From assembly GCA_020851325.1 (NCBI GenBank), contig JADZCY010000212.1:8619-72618 (forward strand): a stretch of DNA of 64,000 bases. Reading direction: 5' to 3'. The notes beneath the pieces are model-generated. The model was not told the origin of the DNA. It saw only the letters and a list, made by a program, of their open reading frames with translations, and did no database searches. Shown one piece after another: positions 823 to 31,680 of this stretch. Source of the DNA: Acidobacteriota bacterium (GTDB lineage: Bacteria; Acidobacteriota; Vicinamibacteria; Vicinamibacterales; UBA2999). The position numbers and the translations under genes were made by a program. Within the stretch, counting starts at the first letter, position 1. Each line of letters starts with the position of its first letter.

Positions 823-1377
823 TCAGATCTTCGGGAGGGTGACGCCGCGCTGCGCCTGATACTTCCCTTGCTTATCGCGGTACGACACCTCGCAGGCCTC
901 GTCGCTCTGGAAGAACAGCACCTGCGCAATGCCTTCGTTGGCGTAGATCTTGGCCGGCAGCGGCGTCGTGTTCGAGATCTCGATGGTGACGTGCCCTTCC
1001 CACTCCGGCTCGAACGGCGTCACGTTGACGATGATGCCGCAGCGCGCGTAGGTGCTCTTGCCGAGGCACACCGTCAGCACGTCGCGCGGGATGCGGAAGT
1101 ACTCGATGGTGCGCGCCAGCGCGAACGAGTTGGGCGGCACGATGCAGGTGTCGCCCTTCAGGTCGACGAACGACTTCGGATCGAAGTTCTTCGGATCCAC
1201 CACCGTGTTGAACAGGTTGGTGAACACCTTGAATTCGTCGGCGACGCGGATGTCGTAGCCGTACGACGACAAGCCGTAGGAGACGACGCCCTGTCGTATC
1301 TGACGGTCCTCGAACGGCTCGATCATGCCGTGCTCGAGCGCCATCTGCCGAATCCACCGATCCGCCTTGATCGCCAT
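823..1377 (-). CDS. dcd: dCTP deaminase
   Basis: [28 protein letters not shown]...[53 protein letters not shown] confirmed at 1375-1377 on the reverse strand. The track ORF is N-terminally over-extended. Confidence 0.9.
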
Positions 1378-1438: not shown

Positions 1439-1852
1439 CTAGCGCAGTTCCATGCCGCGGAAGAAGTAACCGAGTTCGAACGCCGCCGTCTCCGGCGCGT
1501 CCGATCCGTGCGTCGCGTTGTTGTCGATCGAGGCGCCGAATTCCTTGCGGAGCGTGCCATCGGCCGCCTTGGCCGGATCGGTGGCGCCCATCAGGTCGCG
1601 CCATTTCTTGATGGCGTCGGCGGCTTCGAGGCACAGCACGATGCACGGCCCCGACGACATGAAGTCGGTGAGTCCGCCGAAGAACGGCCGCTCGCGGTGC
1701 ACGTGGTAGAAGCCCTCGGCCTCGGCCTTGGACATGTGAATCATGCGGAGGGCCCGCACGGTGAAGCCGACCGCTTCGATACGGGCGAGGATGCGACCTG
1801 CGTACTGCTTCTGGACGGCATCCGGCTTGATGATGGCAAATGTGCGCTGCAT
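1439..1852 (-). CDS. ndk: nucleoside-diphosphate kinase
   Basis: [13 protein letters not shown]...[22 protein letters not shown]. Full-length 137-aa NDK with the active-site His motif. Confidence 0.95.
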
Positions 1853-1862
1853 AAACGCCTGA

Positions 1863-3008
1863 TTATAGCGGAGGTTTCGCCGCGCACGCCGGATAACAGC
1901 CGAGCACCCGGACGAACTGCGTCGCCCCGCTCAAGCGGGTCAGGGCGCCCTGCATGGCGGGCGTCGACAGGTGCCCTTCGACGTCGGCGTAGAACACGTA
2001 TTCCCACGCCACCCCGGCCCGCGGACGTGATTCCAGCTTGCACAGGTTGACACCCTCGTCGGCCAGGATGTTCAGGCAGCGGACCAGCGCCCCGCGCTCG
2101 TGCCGGGTGCCGAACACCAGCGAGACCTTGGCGTCGACGAGCGGATCGCAGGCGTCCGGCGCGCTGGCGATGACGACAAACCGGGTCAGATTCATCGGCT
2201 GGTTGGCAATCTGCCGCTTCAACACGTGCAGGCCAAAGCGCACGCCGGCTTCTTCGCTGGCGATCGCCGCATGGCCCGGCCGCGCCTCGCGCGCCACCCG
2301 TTCGGCCGCCAGCGCCGTGTTTGGCGCCACCTCGGGGTCCACGCCGGGCAGTTCCGCCAGGAACTCGCTGCACTGCGCCAGCGCCTGCGGGTGCGAGTGC
2401 ACGTGCGTGAGGTCAGCGAGACCGACGCCGGCCGGCGCCAGCAGGCAGTGCTCGATCACCAGCACCTCCTCGCCGACGATCGACAGGCTGAGCCTGAAGA
2501 GCAAGTCGTACACATCGTGCACCGATCCCGCGGTGCTGTTCTCGATCGGCAGTACGGCTCGCTCCACATCGCCGTTCTGCACCGCTTCGAGCACCTCGCG
2601 GAACGATCGATACGCCTTGAGTGTCACCGGACGACGACTCACGCCGAAGTGCTGGCGCGCGGCCTGGAATCCGTACGCGCCTTCCGTGCCCTGATATCCC
2701 ACCACCAGCGGCGCCTCCGTCACCGGTGGATCGTTCAGCCATTCCTGCTGCCGGCGAACGGAGTCGTCGAGGATGGCGCGATACAAACGCCGCACGAGCA
2801 CGGGATCGAGTCCGACGCGCTCGCCGAACTCGGTACGGTGCGCCAGGATCGCCTGTTCCCGCGCCTCATCACGCAGCGGCTGCTCCGCCCCGCTCTTGGC
2901 GGCGGTGATGTCGCGCGCCAGGCGGGCGCGCTCGCCAAGCGCGCTCAGGATCACCTTGTCGATGTCGTCGAGCGAACGTCGCAGGTCGGCCAGATCTCGC
3001 ACGGTCAT
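1863..3008 (-). CDS. pheA: bifunctional chorismate mutase / prephenate dehydratase (P-protein)
   Basis: Chorismate mutase helix region ([26 protein letters not shown]), prephenate dehydratase ([16 protein letters not shown]...TRFVVI), and a C-terminal ACT-like region ([34 protein letters not shown]). GGAGGA lies 6 nt upstream of the ATG at 3008. Confidence 0.9.
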
Positions 3009-3022
3009 ACGCTTTCCTCCCC

Positions 3023-3066
3023 AAAAAGAAAAAGCCGCCACCCCAGCGACGTGCTGGGGCGGCGGC
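3023..3066 (-). terminator. intrinsic terminator hairpin 2, abutting the pheA RBS (candidate attenuator terminator)
   Basis: Reverse strand reads GCCGCCGCCCCAGC-acgtc-GCTGGGGTGGCGGC, a 14-bp stem with one G.U, followed by TTTTTCTTTTT. The pheA SD GGGGAGGA follows immediately. Confidence 0.6.
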
Positions 3067-3102
3067 GTGTCGTCCGCGGCGTTGAAACTCAGCGCCGGGC
3101 GG

Positions 3103-3165
3103 TTACACCGTCACCCTTCCCGCAAAAAAGAACACCGCGGCGGCAAACACCGCGGTGCATCGCAT
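3103..3165 (-). CDS. candidate Phe-rich leader peptide (20 aa, MRCTAVFAAAVFFFAGRVTV)
   Basis: ATG at 3165 lies 5 nt after the sucD stop; stop is TAA at 3103-3105. 4 of 20 codons are Phe, including a TTC-TTT-TTT run. It sits between sucD and pheA and spans hairpin 1. This is the tail of track ORF 3103..3522. Confidence 0.35.
   Translation of the reverse strand: MRCTAVFAAAVFFFAGRVTV
3123..3158 (-). terminator. intrinsic terminator-like hairpin 1 (sucCD terminator and/or pause hairpin of the pheA leader)
   Basis: Reverse strand reads CACCGCGG-tgtttgccg-CCGCGGTG followed by TTCTTTTTTG. Confidence 0.5.
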
Positions 3166-3170
3166 CGTCG

Positions 3171-4045
3171 TCACTTCTTCATCGCCTCGATGAGCGTGTC
3201 GCCCATGTCCGCGGGGCTCTTCACGACCTTGACGCCGGCCGCGGTGAGCGCCGACATCTTCTCGGCCGCCGTGCCCTTGCCGCCGGCGATGATCGCGCCG
3301 GCGTGGCCCATGCGGCGTCCCGGCGGCGCCGTCTGTCCGGCGATGAACGCGACGATCGGCTTGGTGAAGTGATCCTTGATCCACGCCGCGGCTTCTTCCT
3401 CGGCCGAGCCGCCGATCTCGCCGATCATGATCACCGCGTCGGTGTCCGGATCGTTCTGGAACAAGCCGAGCGCGTCGATGTGCGTGGTGCCGATCAGCGG
3501 GTCGCCGCCGATGCCGATGCACGTCGACTGGCCAAGGCCGCGCCGCGTCAACTGATCGATCGCCTCGTAGGTGAGCGTGCCGCTCTTCGAGACGATGCCG
3601 ATGCGGCCTTCCTTGCAGATGTTCGCCGGGATGATGCCGGCCTTGCCCTTGCCGGGCGAGATGAGCCCGGGGCAGTTCGGTCCAATCAGCCGCGTGTTCG
3701 GGCAGTCCTTCAGGAATGTCATCGCCCGCAGCATGTCGACCACCGGAATGCCTTCGGTGATGCAGACCACGAGCGCGATGCCGGCGTCGCCCGCTTCCAT
3801 GATGGCGTCGGCCGCGAACGGCGGCGGGACGAAGATCACCGAGGCGTTGGCGCCGGTCTGCTTCACCGCTTCGGCCACGGTATTGAACACCGGCCAGCCC
3901 TCGTGCGTGGTGCCGCCCTTGCCGGGCGTCACGCCGCCGACGACGTTGGTGTGATACGCCGCGGCCGCCTTGGCGTGGAAGGTGCCCTCACGTCCGGTGA
4001 GTCCCTGGACGATGAGGCGCGTGTTCTTGTCGAGCAGGATGGCCA

Positions 4046-4046
<1 letters not shown>
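3171..4046 (-). CDS. sucD: succinate--CoA ligase subunit alpha
   Basis: [31 protein letters not shown]...[17 protein letters not shown] (phosphohistidine loop). Confidence 0.95.
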
Positions 4047-5215
<1,169 letters not shown>

Positions 5216-5494
5216 ATGTAAGGGATGTTGTGAATGCGAACCGCGCGGGATCATAGCACGCGGCCTGCAGCCAGCCGGACCATGTGCCGTTCCGGCACAG
5301 TGCGACAATTCCGTACGCACAGGGAAAGTCGTGGCAAGTCTTGCAGTTAGCGGACTTTGTGCGACCCCATGGCCCGAAACGGCACAGGACGGCACGCCCG
5401 GGCACATCCGCCATCGCCTGACCTAACTCGTTTAATTGAAACGACTTACCATCTATCGACGAGGTGGCATGTCGCATGCTAGGCATGAGCATCA

Positions 5495-7999
5495 ATGGCA
5501 GGTTCTCCCGCCCCCCGGGGCGCGACAACGGGACCGTGGGTACTCGACGTCTACGTGACCATCGTGGTGGCCGCGGGCGTCGGCCTGGTCGCGTACGGCC
5601 TGCCGCTCGCCTCGTTCAACGAGCCCATCCTGTTCGTGGCGCTGCTGCTGGGCTCGATGAGCCTGGCGGTGATGAAGATCCACCTGCCGTTGTCGAGCGG
5701 CCAGGCGACGCTGTCGATGTCCTACTTCACGGACTTCCTCAGCCTCGTGCTGCTCGGGCCGCACGAAGCGATGCTGGTGGCCGGCGCCAGCGCCGCGACG
5801 CAGTCCCTGACGATGAAGAGGGGCCGGTATTCGCTGAAGAAGACGCTCTTCAGCAGCGCCACCCTGATCATCACCATCCAGTCCGCCGGCTTCGTCACCG
5901 ACCAGATTGGCGGCTTCGACCTCTACGCCTCGTTCGCCCAGTTGGCCAAGCCGGCCGCGCTCGGCGCCGCCACCTTCTTCCTGAGTAACAGCTTCCTCGT
6001 CGCCTCGGCCGTCTCGCTGACGCGTGGGGAATCGGTGATTCGCACCTGGCGCCAGGACTTCCTGTGGGCCGGTCCCGCCTGCTTCGTCGCCGCCGGCGCG
6101 GCCACGTTTGCCGCCGCCGTCATGGCGACGCAGGAAGTGTGGCTGGTGCTCTTCGCCGCCGCGCTGCTCGGCCTCACCTTCCACAGTTACCGGGTCTACC
6201 TGGGCCGCGTGTCGGAACACCAGGAGCACGCGCGCACGGTGTCGCGCCTGCACCTCGCCACCGTCGAAGCGCTGGCGCGCGCCATCGACGCCCGCGACCA
6301 GACGATCGACCCCGAGTCGGGCATCACCGAAAACCACATCCGCCGCGTCGAGGCGCGGGCGGCCGCGCTCGGTGAAGCCGCCGGGATGACGCCGGACGAA
6401 GTGGAAGGGCTGAAAGTGGCGGCGCTGCTGCACGACATCGGCAAGCTGGCCGTGCCCGAACACATCCTCACCAAGCCCGGCCGACTGACACCGTCGGAAT
6501 TCGACTACGTGCGCCTGCACCCGACCGTCGGCGCCAACATCATCAAGGCCGTGCCGTTCCCCTACCCGGTGGCGCCGTACATCCAGAGCCATCACGAACG
6601 CTGGGATGGCGGCGGTTATCCCGACGGCCTGAAGGGCGCGGAGATCCCGATGGGCGCGCGCGTCCTCGCCGTCGTCGACTACTACGACGCGCTCACCGCT
6701 CATCGTCCGTATCACCGCGCGATGGCGCGCGATGAGGCGATGGAGACGCTGCAGCGCGAAGCCGGCAAGGCCCTGGATCCGCGTCTGGTGGAGTTGTTCC
6801 TGGACGTGCTGCCGGCCACCGAGTCGCAGGAAGAACAGGAAGCGGCTCGCCAGCGTGTGCGGACCGACGTGTCGCAGAACCGCGCCGGCGCGCCGGCCAC
6901 CGGCTTCTCGGTCACCGGCACCGACGCCGCACTGCCCGCCGACGACGTGTATCACAGCATTTCGCGGGCGACGCAGGAGGTGCGGACGCTGTACGACATC
7001 GCACAGGCGCTGGGCACGCGCCTCAGCGTGGACGACACGATGGGTCTGCTGACCTCCAAGCTGAACCGCCTCGTGCCGGCCTCCTGCTGGGCGCTTTATG
7101 TGCCCGACGGCGCCCGTGTCACGCTGCAATGCCGCTTTGCTTCAGGGCTGTCGGCCGACGCCGTCGAGGGCTTGTTCGTGCCGATGGGCGAAGGGGCCAC
7201 CGGCTGGGCCGCGCGCCATGCCACCCCCGCGGTGAACGCGCGGGCCGCCAGCGACTTCGAATCGGCCGGGGCCAAGAGTGCCGGCAGTCATTTCCAGTCC
7301 GCCCTTGCCTTCCCGCTGGTGGAGAACGATGAACTGGTCGGCATCCTCACCGCCTACCACGTCGATCACCAGCCCTACACCGATGCGCACGTGCGCCTGC
7401 TCGAGCGCCTCGGCCTGCAGGCGGCGTCGGTGATCTCGAATTCGATCCAGTTCGAGGGCATGCGTGCGGCGTCGTTGACCGACGCCCTCACGGACCTGCC
7501 CAACTCGCGGGCGCTGGTTGGCCACGTCGATCAGCGGCTGGCGTCCACCGCCGAGCAGCCGGTGCCAAGCGCGCTCATCATGATCGACCTCGACGATTTC
7601 AAGTCGATCAACGACGTGCACGGCCACCAGGTGGGCGACCTCGCCCTGCAGACGCTGGCGACGACGCTGCGCCGGCAGATCCGCGCCGCGGACTTCTGCG
7701 CCCGTTACGGCGGCGACGAGTTCGTGATTGCGCTGGCGTGCCAGGACCGCGCCGAGGCGACGCGCCGCGCCCAGGACCTGCAGCGGGCGGTGGCCCGGCA
7801 GCAGGTGCCGGCGCCCGATGGCAGCCTGCTGACGCTGAGCATCAGCGTCGGCGTGGCGATGAGCGGCGAAGACGGCGACACCTTCGAGGCCCTGCTCGAC
7901 GCCGCCGACCGCCGGATGTACGAAGACAAGTTCTCGCGCAAGCCGCTGCGGCACCGCGCCACCACGGCGTCGGTGCCCCTGGCTCAATCCACGCCGTGA
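5495..7999 (+). CDS. membrane-anchored HD-GYP phosphodiesterase / GAF / GGDEF diguanylate cyclase hybrid
   Basis: Multi-TM N-terminus; HD motif (LLHDIGKLAVPEHIL); HHERWDGGGYPDGL (HD-GYP); GAF-like middle region; C-terminal RYGGDEFVIA with RAAD five residues upstream (I-site RxxD). Start codon uncertain. Confidence 0.85.
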   Translation: MAGSPAPRGATTGPWVLDVYVTIVVAAGVGLVAYGLPLASFNEPILFVALLLGSMSLAVMKIHLPLSSGQATLSMSYFTDFLSLVLLGPHEAMLVAGASAATQSLTMKRGRYSLKKTLFSSATLIITIQSAGFVTDQIGGFDLYASFAQLAKPAALGAATFFLSNSFLVASAVSLTRGESVIRTWRQDFLWAGPACFVAAGAATFAAAVMATQEVWLVLFAAALLGLTFHSYRVYLGRVSEHQEHARTVSRLHLATVEALARAIDARDQTIDPESGITENHIRRVEARAAALGEAAGMTPDEVEGLKVAALLHDIGKLAVPEHILTKPGRLTPSEFDYVRLHPTVGANIIKAVPFPYPVAPYIQSHHERWDGGGYPDGLKGAEIPMGARVLAVVDYYDALTAHRPYHRAMARDEAMETLQREAGKALDPRLVELFLDVLPATESQEEQEAARQRVRTDVSQNRAGAPATGFSVTGTDAALPADDVYHSISRATQEVRTLYDIAQALGTRLSVDDTMGLLTSKLNRLVPASCWALYVPDGARVTLQCRFASGLSADAVEGLFVPMGEGATGWAARHATPAVNARAASDFESAGAKSAGSHFQSALAFPLVENDELVGILTAYHVDHQPYTDAHVRLLERLGLQAASVISNSIQFEGMRAASLTDALTDLPNSRALVGHVDQRLASTAEQPVPSALIMIDLDDFKSINDVHGHQVGDLALQTLATTLRRQIRAADFCARYGGDEFVIALACQDRAEATRRAQDLQRAVARQQVPAPDGSLLTLSISVGVAMSGEDGDTFEALLDAADRRMYEDKFSRKPLRHRATTASVPLAQSTP

Positions 8000-31056: not shown

Positions 31057-31680
31057 CTACTCGTCTTCTTTCGGATCGGCGAAGTCGCCGAAATTGACTT
31101 GCAGCGTGCCGCGGGCGATGACCTCGTTGCCCACCTGATCGCGGCCGTAGAACTCGATCTCGGCCAGCGTGCTGATCAACATCGAACCGCCGCCGCCACG
31201 AAGGTTCCGCAGCGGCTGTTCGACCTTGGCCTGATGGCGCACGATCTCGAAGGGAATCGACGCGACGCCCTGCGCCGGAATCGTCGCCGTGACGGCCCCG
31301 TCGAACGGATGCGGCACATCGACGCCCGCGGTGTTCCGTCCGTCGGCCCGACGGAACGTGACCCGGTAGCGGTTCAAGGTGATGGCGACGTTGTTGGAGG
31401 GCGCCGTCGGGATCACGGCGCCCTGGTTCTTCATCGCGATTCGCATGGCGGCGACGGCGAGGTCATTGAACGTGCTGCCATTCGTGGCGACGTCGGAGAG
31501 CAGCGGCACGCCGAACTCTTCCGGATCGGCGCCCGACGCGCCTTCGATCGAGTCGATGATGATGTAAGCCGGTGACGAGCCGGTGCGCGTCAGTTCGCTC
31601 GCGCACGAGGCCGACGACAAGGCGGCCACGGCCAGCAGGCCGGCGCCGACGAGCGGGCGGAATCGGTGAATGCTCTCCAT
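31057..31680 (-). CDS. hypothetical lipoprotein directly downstream of pilQ
   Basis: Signal plus lipobox (LLAVAALSSASC). No recognisable domain. Start is ATG 31680 or GTG 31692; the latter touches the pilQ stop. Confidence 0.5.
   Translation of the reverse strand: MESIHRFRPLVGAGLLAVAALSSASCASELTRTGSSPAYIIIDSIEGASGADPEEFGVPLLSDVATNGSTFNDLAVAAMRIAMKNQGAVIPTAPSNNVAITLNRYRVTFRRADGRNTAGVDVPHPFDGAVTATIPAQGVASIPFEIVRHQAKVEQPLRNLRGGGGSMLISTLAEIEFYGRDQVGNEVIARGTLQVNFGDFADPKEDE

Follow-up and report, generated by a model that had tools for sequence, protein, structure and literature searches.

The stretch of DNA analysed here, 64,000 nucleotides long and referred to as the window, belongs to an Acidobacteriota bacterium of the order Vicinamibacterales (assembly GCA_020851325.1, contig JADZCY010000212.1, positions 8,619 to 72,618). 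On its minus strand, the gene of the succinate-CoA ligase alpha subunit, sucD (3171..4046; NCBIfam NF004230, E 3e-138; stop codon TGA at 3173-3171), is followed by pheA (1863..3008; NCBIfam NF007910, E 3e-86; start codon ATG at 3008), which encodes a bifunctional chorismate mutase/prephenate dehydratase with both domains present. The two genes are separated by a spacer of 162 nt, in which the elements follow each other on the minus strand in the order sucD, leader open reading frame (ORF), hairpin 1 with a U tract, a 14-bp terminator (hairpin 2) with a T tract, Shine-Dalgarno (SD) sequence of pheA and ATG. Judged from the sequence, this spacer is very likely a ribosome-mediated (classical) attenuator that makes the expression of pheA dependent on charged tRNA-Phe. 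Such an element had been proposed in an original prediction made from the letters of the window alone, and all of the elements it had named were recovered on the minus strand where it had placed them.

Including its stop codon, the leader ORF occupies positions 3103..3174 when it is read from the GTG at 3174-3172 (23 codons), and it comprises 20 codons when it is read from the in-frame ATG at 3165-3163, from which it encodes MRCTAVFAAAVFFFAGRVTV up to the TAA at 3105-3103. The predicted 20-codon ORF with four Phe codons, including TTC-TTT-TTT, is thus present and may extend to 23 codons by means of the GTG, which is in the same frame as the ATG and overlaps the TGA of sucD (GTGA). The overlap or abutment of the leader start with the sucD stop had been missed by the prediction. 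The first regulatory Phe codon, TTT (3145..3147), is located in the loop of hairpin 1, and the run of three, TTC TTT TTT (3124..3132), doubles as the U tract of this hairpin. Four Phe in 20-23 codons correspond to P = 0.002-0.004 with the 2.9% Phe of pheA, sucD and sucC as background. The gene downstream is pheA, and the enriched codons are thus those of the amino acid to whose synthesis the regulated enzyme contributes.

Hairpin 1 (3132..3158) begins 12 nt past the sucD stop inside the leader ORF, consists of 11 bp (two of them G.U) with the loop UUUGC, has a ΔG of -20.3 kcal/mol (z -4.4) and precedes UUCUUUUUU; its presence with a U tract inside the ORF agrees with the prediction, which had counted 8 bp instead of 11. 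The terminator stem-loop (3034..3066), i.e. regions 3:4, contains the predicted 14 bp with the loop ACGUC (ΔG -33.0 kcal/mol, z -6.0), and its T tract, TTTTTCTTTTT (3023..3033), is supported by the sequence and by a terminator scan. The T tract adjoins the SD sequence of pheA, GGGGAGGA (3015..3022; anti-SD duplex -10.7 kcal/mol), and no room is left for a promoter between the terminator and the SD sequence, as had been argued. The antiterminator is formed by two short strands. Region 2, GGGTGACGGTGT (3105..3116), spans the final four codons of the leader together with the T of its stop codon, and region 3, ACGCCGCCGCCC (3057..3068), can pair either with region 2 in the antiterminator or with region 4 in the terminator. 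Regions 2 and 3 pair in 11 of 12 positions, including two G.U pairs, a count that had been obtained by hand before, and this helix is the minimum free energy (MFE) fold of the window once the 3' arm of the terminator is omitted. Together with the inner hairpin (3074..3102; ΔG -13.9 kcal/mol, z -2.3) the antiterminator reaches -33.2 kcal/mol, which is equal to the terminator. The combined motif GGTGTAR-N25-50-CGCCGCCC occurs once in the window, with 0.01 occurrences expected.

A total of 26 spacers were compared, i.e. the window and 25 related genomes or contigs with a pheA that is 63-75% identical to that of the window. With sucD directly upstream of pheA in each case, the relatives comprise 17 species-representative genomes (L001-L018 without L016, the contig of which begins inside pheA), at least two usable extra spacers (L081, L082) from a metagenome scan with pheA, where the matches listed were filled by distant prephenate dehydratase homologues, and six further contigs found via homologous proteins (L161, L162, L165, L169, L170, L171). 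The best pheA matches in this identity range are metagenome-assembled genomes (MAGs) labelled Vicinamibacterales or Acidobacteriota, and no protein more than 75% identical to the window pheA was found among 5.8 billion proteins. The sucD of the window shares 88-92% identity with the sucD upstream of pheA in the relatives, and the common gene order is sucC-sucD-spacer-pheA-ndk-(DUF2905)-dcd. The spacer mostly measures 143-162 nt, with 181-244 nt and more in L015, L017, L162 and L169. MAFFT does not align the inner hairpin or the upstream segment termed region 1 below in register, and folds of the individual sequences were used there instead of column covariation. Individual folding was done on 20 sequences, and the reading frame of TTY triplets was counted in 18 intact leaders.

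The leader ORF is intact in 24 of the 26 sequences, where it opens with a start codon at the sucD stop and closes with a stop codon whose alignment position does not vary. Its length is 20, 21, 22, 23, 24 or, once, 39 codons, so that all length differences are multiples of three, and each intact leader carries two to five Phe; examples are VTSTRRATVRPFTGFFFTGRVTV, MRHTAFPFVFTFAGFTAGREAV, MTAARAAFRFFGDFASWGAV and MILFATFRTSFTGFCARRGAV, each ending at the stop codon. Of the TTY triplets, 68 are in the leader frame, whereas the two remaining frames hold 13 and 12. The relatives have thus preserved the mini-ORF and its Phe codons, which the original prediction had named as a check on its claim, and likewise the position of the stop. 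In one clade, to which MRHTAFPFVFTFAGFTAGREAV belongs, four to five isolated TTY codons (F-P-F-V-F-T-F-A-G-F) are all in frame without forming a T run, and the Phe codons therefore cannot be a by-product of a terminator T tract. The last Phe is positioned 7-8 codons before the leader stop in nearly all sequences and 11 codons before it in L011. Apart from the Phe residues and the last codons, which belong to the RNA element, the peptide is poorly conserved, and a search of the leader peptide against Pfam gave no match. Furthermore, TTT accounts for 56% of the Phe codons in the 24 intact leaders (50 TTT:39 TTC), compared with 10% in the five genes of the window (5 TTT:47 TTC) and 2% in the pheA of eight relatives (2:82), which fits slow, wobble-read regulatory codons.

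The two broken leaders, in L005 (2827-3012) and L017 (2594-3012), contain single-nucleotide indels, and both are found in large-contig MAGs labelled MFD. As sucD is also broken in L017, an assembly error is likely in this case; a fragmented sucD was likewise observed in L170 (1-1054). The indels and fragmented genes of these three are probably homopolymer assembly errors rather than biology and call for caution in surveys of small ORFs.

The terminator has good comparative support. Its pairing is realised in 94-96% of the cells of the 26-sequence alignment, and sliding the 3' partner lowers this share to 31-57%. Compensatory changes were observed at the four apical pairs, and its covariation score was reached in 0 of 500 shuffles. 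Within the window, hairpins 1 and 2 are the two strongest terminator-like sites. The totals of terminator-like sites are not above those of shuffled sequences (13 vs 9.9, 6 vs 7.5, 9 vs 9.4 and 0 vs 1.6), and canonical sites with a hairpin and a U tract are otherwise rare in the window, so that the element points to intrinsic termination being used for regulation in this lineage. The sole other long GC-rich hairpin from the terminator scan, with 10 bp at 31398-31424 on the plus strand, has a T-poor tail, GGTTCTTCAT. Two relatives carry additional sequence between the attenuator terminator and pheA: in L015 (2905-3000) the insert is a perfect palindrome, about 90 nt long and with T runs at its end (GGGGACAGGCACCTTTTTT…AAAAAAGGTGCCTGTCCCC), and in L162 (1150-1200) about 50 extra nt are found at the same place. 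These may represent a mobile palindromic element or a second terminator.

Region 3, the 5' part of the left arm of the terminator, is a nearly invariant block in the 26 sequences. The register of regions 2:3 is 84-86% paired, compared with 33-59% when it is slid, and RNAalifold independently arrives at this helix when the alignment is truncated ahead of the 3' arm. When the sequences are folded individually without the 3' arm, 9-13 pairs between regions 2 and 3 plus the inner hairpin are obtained in 20 of 20 cases (ΔG -26 to -44 kcal/mol, mean z -2.0), and the competing antiterminator anticipated for the window is thus predicted for every sequence folded. The inner hairpin is variable in sequence (mean z -1.7), and the leader stop codon has a fixed place inside the antiterminator strand. 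In addition to the changes in the terminator, there is one compensatory double change in the antiterminator: in L169, the last leader codon is changed from GTG to GTC, which is synonymous, and region 3 from ACACC to AGACC, whereby a G:C pair becomes C:G. Region 3, which has two partners to pair with, is almost invariant, and this limits the covariation of the antiterminator; the latter therefore rests mainly on conserved complementarity and thermodynamics.

The arrangement upstream of region 2 differs between the window and its relatives. The 5' arm of hairpin 1 corresponds to region 1 of the relatives and pairs in the window with a nearby copy-like segment, whereas the free-RNA MFE folds of most relatives pair region 2 with the upstream region 1, with the Phe codons near the apex. 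In the window, hairpin 1 takes the place of this predicted region 1:2 hairpin. A hairpin with a T tract at this place is not kept in the relatives and is terminator-like only in the window genome, so that the two tandem terminators of the original prediction do exist as hairpins in the window, but the tandem is a peculiarity of this genome and not of the element. In the window genome, hairpin 1 and the U tract provided by the three Phe codons may end transcription where the leader goes untranslated, a role that the region 1:2 hairpin would take in the relatives.

The geometry of the ribosome was evaluated by footprint-constrained folding, in which a footprint of 28 nt was forced to be unpaired and the nascent RNA was defined as the RNA made to the end of the left arm. 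With the footprint on the stop codon, the pairing of regions 2:3 was absent in 20 of 20 sequences and the terminator formed in 19 of 20. With the footprint on Phe codons at least eight codons before the stop, the full antiterminator formed in the nascent RNA for most codons and most sequences; the exceptions include L015, L014 and L009. From the computed elements, their conservation, the covariation of the terminator, the mutually exclusive folds and this geometry, we infer translation of the leader, its coupling to sucD, stalling of the ribosome and a kinetic choice between the folds. RNA polymerase would come in from sucCD, and a ribosome, arriving most likely by termination-reinitiation or coupling at the sucD stop, would translate the leader of 20-23 codons. 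When Phe is plentiful, this ribosome would reach the leader stop and cover region 2 (GGGTGACGGTGT, 3116-3105), leaving region 3 free for region 4; the 14-bp terminator with its U tract would form, and transcription would end 15 nt before the pheA ATG. When Phe-tRNA is scarce, the ribosome would stall at the Phe codons, 7-14 codons before the stop, and leave region 2 free, which could pair with region 3 as soon as this is made and, together with the inner hairpin, would give an antiterminator of about -33 kcal/mol that blocks the terminator, so that pheA would be transcribed. The logic of pheL/pheA-type attenuation, which had been suggested for the locus, is supported by these comparative tests, and the conservation of leader, antiterminator and terminator in about 25 related genomes makes it very probable that the element is a real switch that turns pheA on when Phe is short.

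Several observations weigh against this interpretation. The sequences are phylogenetically related and the counts are therefore not independent. The covariation of the antiterminator is thin, with a single double change and a score that was reached by 24 of 500 shuffles, and the antiterminator fold of the window has a z of only -1.8. In terms of energy and pair counts, the region 1:2 hairpin is no better than shuffled sequences (mean z -0.7). A footprint on the last Phe codon, seven codons before the stop, covers region 2 partly, and once the 3' arm is present, equilibrium folding favours the terminator even if the ribosome is stalled. The choice of the fold must therefore be kinetic, as in known attenuators. 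Translation of the leader is made uncertain by GTG starts and the lack of an SD sequence, and a promoter inside sucD is possible. Finally, the excess of TTT in the leaders may reflect the mere absence of codon optimisation.

The start of the leader is closely tied to the end of sucD. In 19 of the 26 sequences it shares an ATGA or GTGA with the sucD stop and in one a TGATG, and it is found 2-4 nt past the stop in the other six; overall, it lies within -1 to +7 nt of the stop in all 26. An SD sequence is not conserved before the leader, where the median anti-SD duplex is -2.5 kcal/mol, as opposed to -8.5 kcal/mol before pheA. A sigma-70 scan detected no promoter-like site in the 3' part of the window sucD, and the last 25 sucD codons show no excess of synonymous conservation but are more variable at their third positions than the rest of the gene (0.92 vs 0.68 bits). 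The sequence tests thus revealed neither the promoter nor the ribosome-binding site that the leader of a classical attenuator usually has; these are a customary feature of attenuators but not mechanistically essential. In L166, pheA starts 10 nt behind sucD and in L167 about 45 nt behind it, and neither contains an attenuator; the close distance fits co-transcription of the two genes. A leader start at the sucD stop without a conserved SD or promoter signal points to an operon-internal element that is translated by the ribosomes of sucD. In a tentative extension of this reading, the spacer could act as an operon-internal checkpoint, in which a ribosome ending at the sucD stop reinitiates on the overlapping ATGA or GTGA, close behind RNA polymerase, and needs neither a pause hairpin nor a ribosome-binding site. 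On the same tentative footing, the window could harbour a two-step device, with hairpin 1 ending untranslated or uncoupled transcripts and the second terminator reading the Phe supply. If this is true, the output of pheA, and perhaps of ndk and dcd downstream, would integrate the transcription and translation of sucCD with the charging of tRNA-Phe.

Alternatively, the attenuator could be classical but independent of sucD, with a promoter in the 3' part of sucD and de novo loading of ribosomes, and the overlap would then be a result of genome compaction. Classical attenuators own a promoter, and in some of the relatives the GTG or ATG start is preceded by GAGG at a distance of about 10 nt (duplex -5.9 kcal/mol). 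An insertion in L169 carries a perfect TATAAT, with an in-frame GTG of the leader 7 nt behind it. In L019, a member of another Acidobacteriota lineage, the Phe leader stands free, at least 60 nt past the upstream gene. However, this alternative is at odds with the missing sigma-70-like site, the variable third positions of the last sucD codons, the poor and unconserved SD sequence of the leader and a start at the sucD stop in every sequence, and the lineages that lost the attenuator have kept pheA 10-45 nt behind sucD. We consider a sucD-independent promoter less likely than not, although it is the chief competitor of the operon-internal reading. The L169 insertion of about 50 nt (990-1060) between the sucD stop and the core leader keeps the frame open and results in the 39-codon ORF, which was annotated by one gene caller; the lineage of L169 may have acquired its own leader promoter.

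Other readings dispense with the ribosome or with the terminator. The switch could be real but set by an RNA-binding protein, an uncharged tRNA or a small ligand, with the ORF as a by-product. This would agree with regions 2 and 3 and their spacing being more conserved than the peptide, with the lack of an SD sequence before the leader, and with the report that some leader-like ORFs of actinobacteria are not classical attenuators (PMC1262725). However, it leaves the frame-specific Phe codons, the indels in multiples of three and the start pinned to the sucD stop unexplained. A Rfam scan of the whole window at the gathering threshold found only a tRNA-Ala elsewhere and no leader family, including Phe_leader (RF01859), and a scan of 2950-3250 at E values up to 10 gave nine matches, which are noise and include no leader family. 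No Rfam match to a T-box or riboswitch aptamer was obtained upstream of the terminator either, and the 162 nt are fully used by the ORF and the two alternative helices. Moreover, there is no conserved unpaired block for a ligand pocket, as the conserved blocks are the mutually exclusive strands. Taken together, a switch of this kind is improbable here, and the element belongs to no curated family.

It is even less probable that hairpin 1 does no more than terminate sucCD, that hairpin 2 serves RNA stability or is a terminator of an unrelated or constitutive kind, and that the ORF is a chance reading of a T tract as FFF, a possibility that the original prediction had itself raised in part. The position of hairpin 1 12 nt past the sucD stop, its ΔG of -20.3 kcal/mol and the UUCUUUUUU behind it would suit a terminator, and stop codons are rare at 67% GC, with none in frame 2 of any leader region and none in frame 1 of four of the 18. 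However, relatives without the hairpin and T tract keep in-frame Phe codons, often as isolated TTY. Added to this are the 68:13:12 distribution of TTY among the frames, indels in multiples of three in 24 of 26 sequences and a leader stop fixed in the antiterminator strand. The explanation fails, since hairpin 1 is terminator-like in this genome only, yet the relatives share the Phe codons. That the ORF encodes a functional small peptide, or acts via translation or Rho-dependent polarity and not via an intrinsic terminator, is likewise highly improbable: the ORF is conserved, V-T-V or A-V recur at its C-terminus and one gene caller annotated it in L169, yet the peptide is poorly conserved beyond the Phe and the region 2 codons and lacks a Pfam match, its C-terminal conservation is explained by the RNA pairing, as the sole change is synonymous and has its counterpart in region 3, and pheA is immediately preceded by a strong intrinsic terminator that shows covariation.

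With ribosome-mediated attenuation as the preferred reading, the element can be compared with known systems. The closest counterpart is the pheL-pheA system of E. coli and other enterobacteria (RF01859), which controls the same bifunctional gene. There, too, a short leader ORF is rich in Phe codons, and right in front of pheA an antiterminator and an intrinsic terminator contend for the 5' arm of the latter. No homology in sequence or structure to this system was detected with Rfam at E values up to 10. The pheL of E. coli contains seven Phe in 15 codons, ending beside the stop, whereas two to five Phe, dispersed or clustered, are found here in 20-24 codons. Moreover, region 2 is here part of the ORF, up to and including the first base of the stop codon. 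Neither a promoter nor an SD sequence specific to the leader was detected, the leader start overlaps the stop of the upstream sucD, and the host belongs to the phylum Acidobacteriota. The pheL leader is known mainly from gamma-proteobacteria; Bacteroides and Desulfobacterium contribute a few possible examples (PMC3082878). With the leaders trpL, hisL, leuL, thrL, ilvL and pheM-pheST, the element shares mutually exclusive hairpins that are read by the position of the ribosome, a terminator directly before the structural gene and the need for kinetic control. It differs from them in its operon-internal position behind an operon of the tricarboxylic acid cycle, in translational coupling that probably replaces independent loading of ribosomes, and in a 1:2 pause or anti-antiterminator hairpin that has no statistical support; the window additionally contains the upstream terminator-like hairpin that uses Phe codons as its U tract. 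The ilvB, leuA and cys leaders of actinobacteria were likewise predicted by comparative genomics in high-GC genomes, with runs of cognate codons upstream of biosynthetic genes. In many of these cases, one or more components of an attenuator are missing or mutational tests were negative (PMC1262725), whereas the regulatory codons, the antiterminator and the terminator with its U tract are all present and conserved here.

The study of Actinobacteria came across no regulatory RNA for Phe (PMC1262725), and attenuators predicted in Acidobacteria are said to lack a functional assignment (PMC2965389). The literature searched contained no report of a Phe leader in Acidobacteria or Acidobacteriota, nor of a leader peptide coupled to the stop of an upstream gene, although an earlier mention of either may exist. 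To our knowledge, nearly all documented attenuation by leader peptides comes from Proteobacteria, and some further cases are known from Actinobacteria, Firmicutes and Bacteroidetes. The Phe attenuator described here follows a known logic; what is unusual is its presumed operon-internal position and its presumed translational coupling to sucD. It provides a family-wide and well-supported example in the Vicinamibacterales, which are abundant soil bacteria and hard to grow. If the leader is truly coupled to sucD, attenuation would operate in this case without an own promoter, ribosome-binding site or pause hairpin. In practical terms, the small ORF and the cis-regulatory RNA can be added as annotation features to these genomes, and the element is a candidate Phe-responsive part.

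Beyond the 26 spacers, the attenuator is absent where the synteny is broken, as in L163 and L164 (530-1200), where an unannotated gene of 170 aa on the opposite strand is located between sucD and pheA, and in L168 (1100-1200), where pheA follows an amino-acid permease. It is also absent at the short junctions of L166 (1180-1215) and L167 (1150-1200), and the spacer of about 45 nt in the latter may be a deletion remnant.

A candidate Phe attenuator of its own was observed in L019 (2778-2960), a more distant Acidobacteriota MAG with a pheA of 43% identity and an asd-like gene upstream. Its leader, MSRSTTRLELVRTTAMSPDVELWSGFFMFTADNERVLT (or a shorter form from an internal ATG), ends with WSGFFMFTADNERVLT before the stop codon, which is located at the inner hairpin just downstream of the pairing strand. 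In its last codons, GAGCGGGTCC pairs with GGACCCGC of the terminator 5' arm, and a strong terminator, CCCGCCGAG…CTCGGCGGG with TTTTTTATTT, is followed by the SD sequence of pheA. The design is the same as in the window, with a different sequence and neighbouring gene; it may be more widespread or may have arisen twice. At loci from Acidimicrobiia (L020, 1468-1545; L021, 2740-2860; L085; L086), a bifunctional pheA with 40% identity is accompanied by a conserved Phe/Tyr-rich upstream ORF ending in RRFFGFVYFGA, which lies directly behind a TTGACA-17-GATAAT promoter and is followed by no terminator of the hairpin and U tract type. It may represent a different, non-terminator mode of Phe sensing. 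A generic scan for Phe-rich upstream ORFs also returned candidates in other phyla, i.e. several from Dehalococcoidia, which were rejected as they resemble the C-terminus of the upstream protein, and one from L061, which was rejected as it resembles a terminator T tract read as FFF.

Downstream of pheA in the window, ndk (1439..1852, minus strand; Pfam NDK, E 1e-51) begins 10 nt behind the pheA stop and is followed by dcd (823..1377, minus strand). Presumably, ndk is on the same attenuated transcript as pheA, unless it has a promoter of its own. A housekeeping gene of nucleotide metabolism behind a Phe-controlled terminator would be odd without such an internal promoter. At the other end, sucC (4046..5215, minus strand; NCBIfam NF001913, E 2e-177), which encodes the beta subunit of the succinate-CoA ligase, opens the presumed transcription unit. 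Its true start is the ATG at 5215, as the NF001913 alignment begins at residue 65 of the long ORF, and no recognisable SD sequence precedes it. The ORF of 545 aa immediately upstream of sucC (5492-7129, minus strand) has no NCBIfam or Pfam match and could be a shadow ORF in GC-rich DNA. Between them, a non-coding and comparatively AT-rich stretch of 280 nt (5216-5490, minus strand) is likely the promoter region of the sucCD(-pheA) unit. Within this stretch, TGCTATGAT, about 35 nt before the sucC ATG, resembles an extended -10 element.

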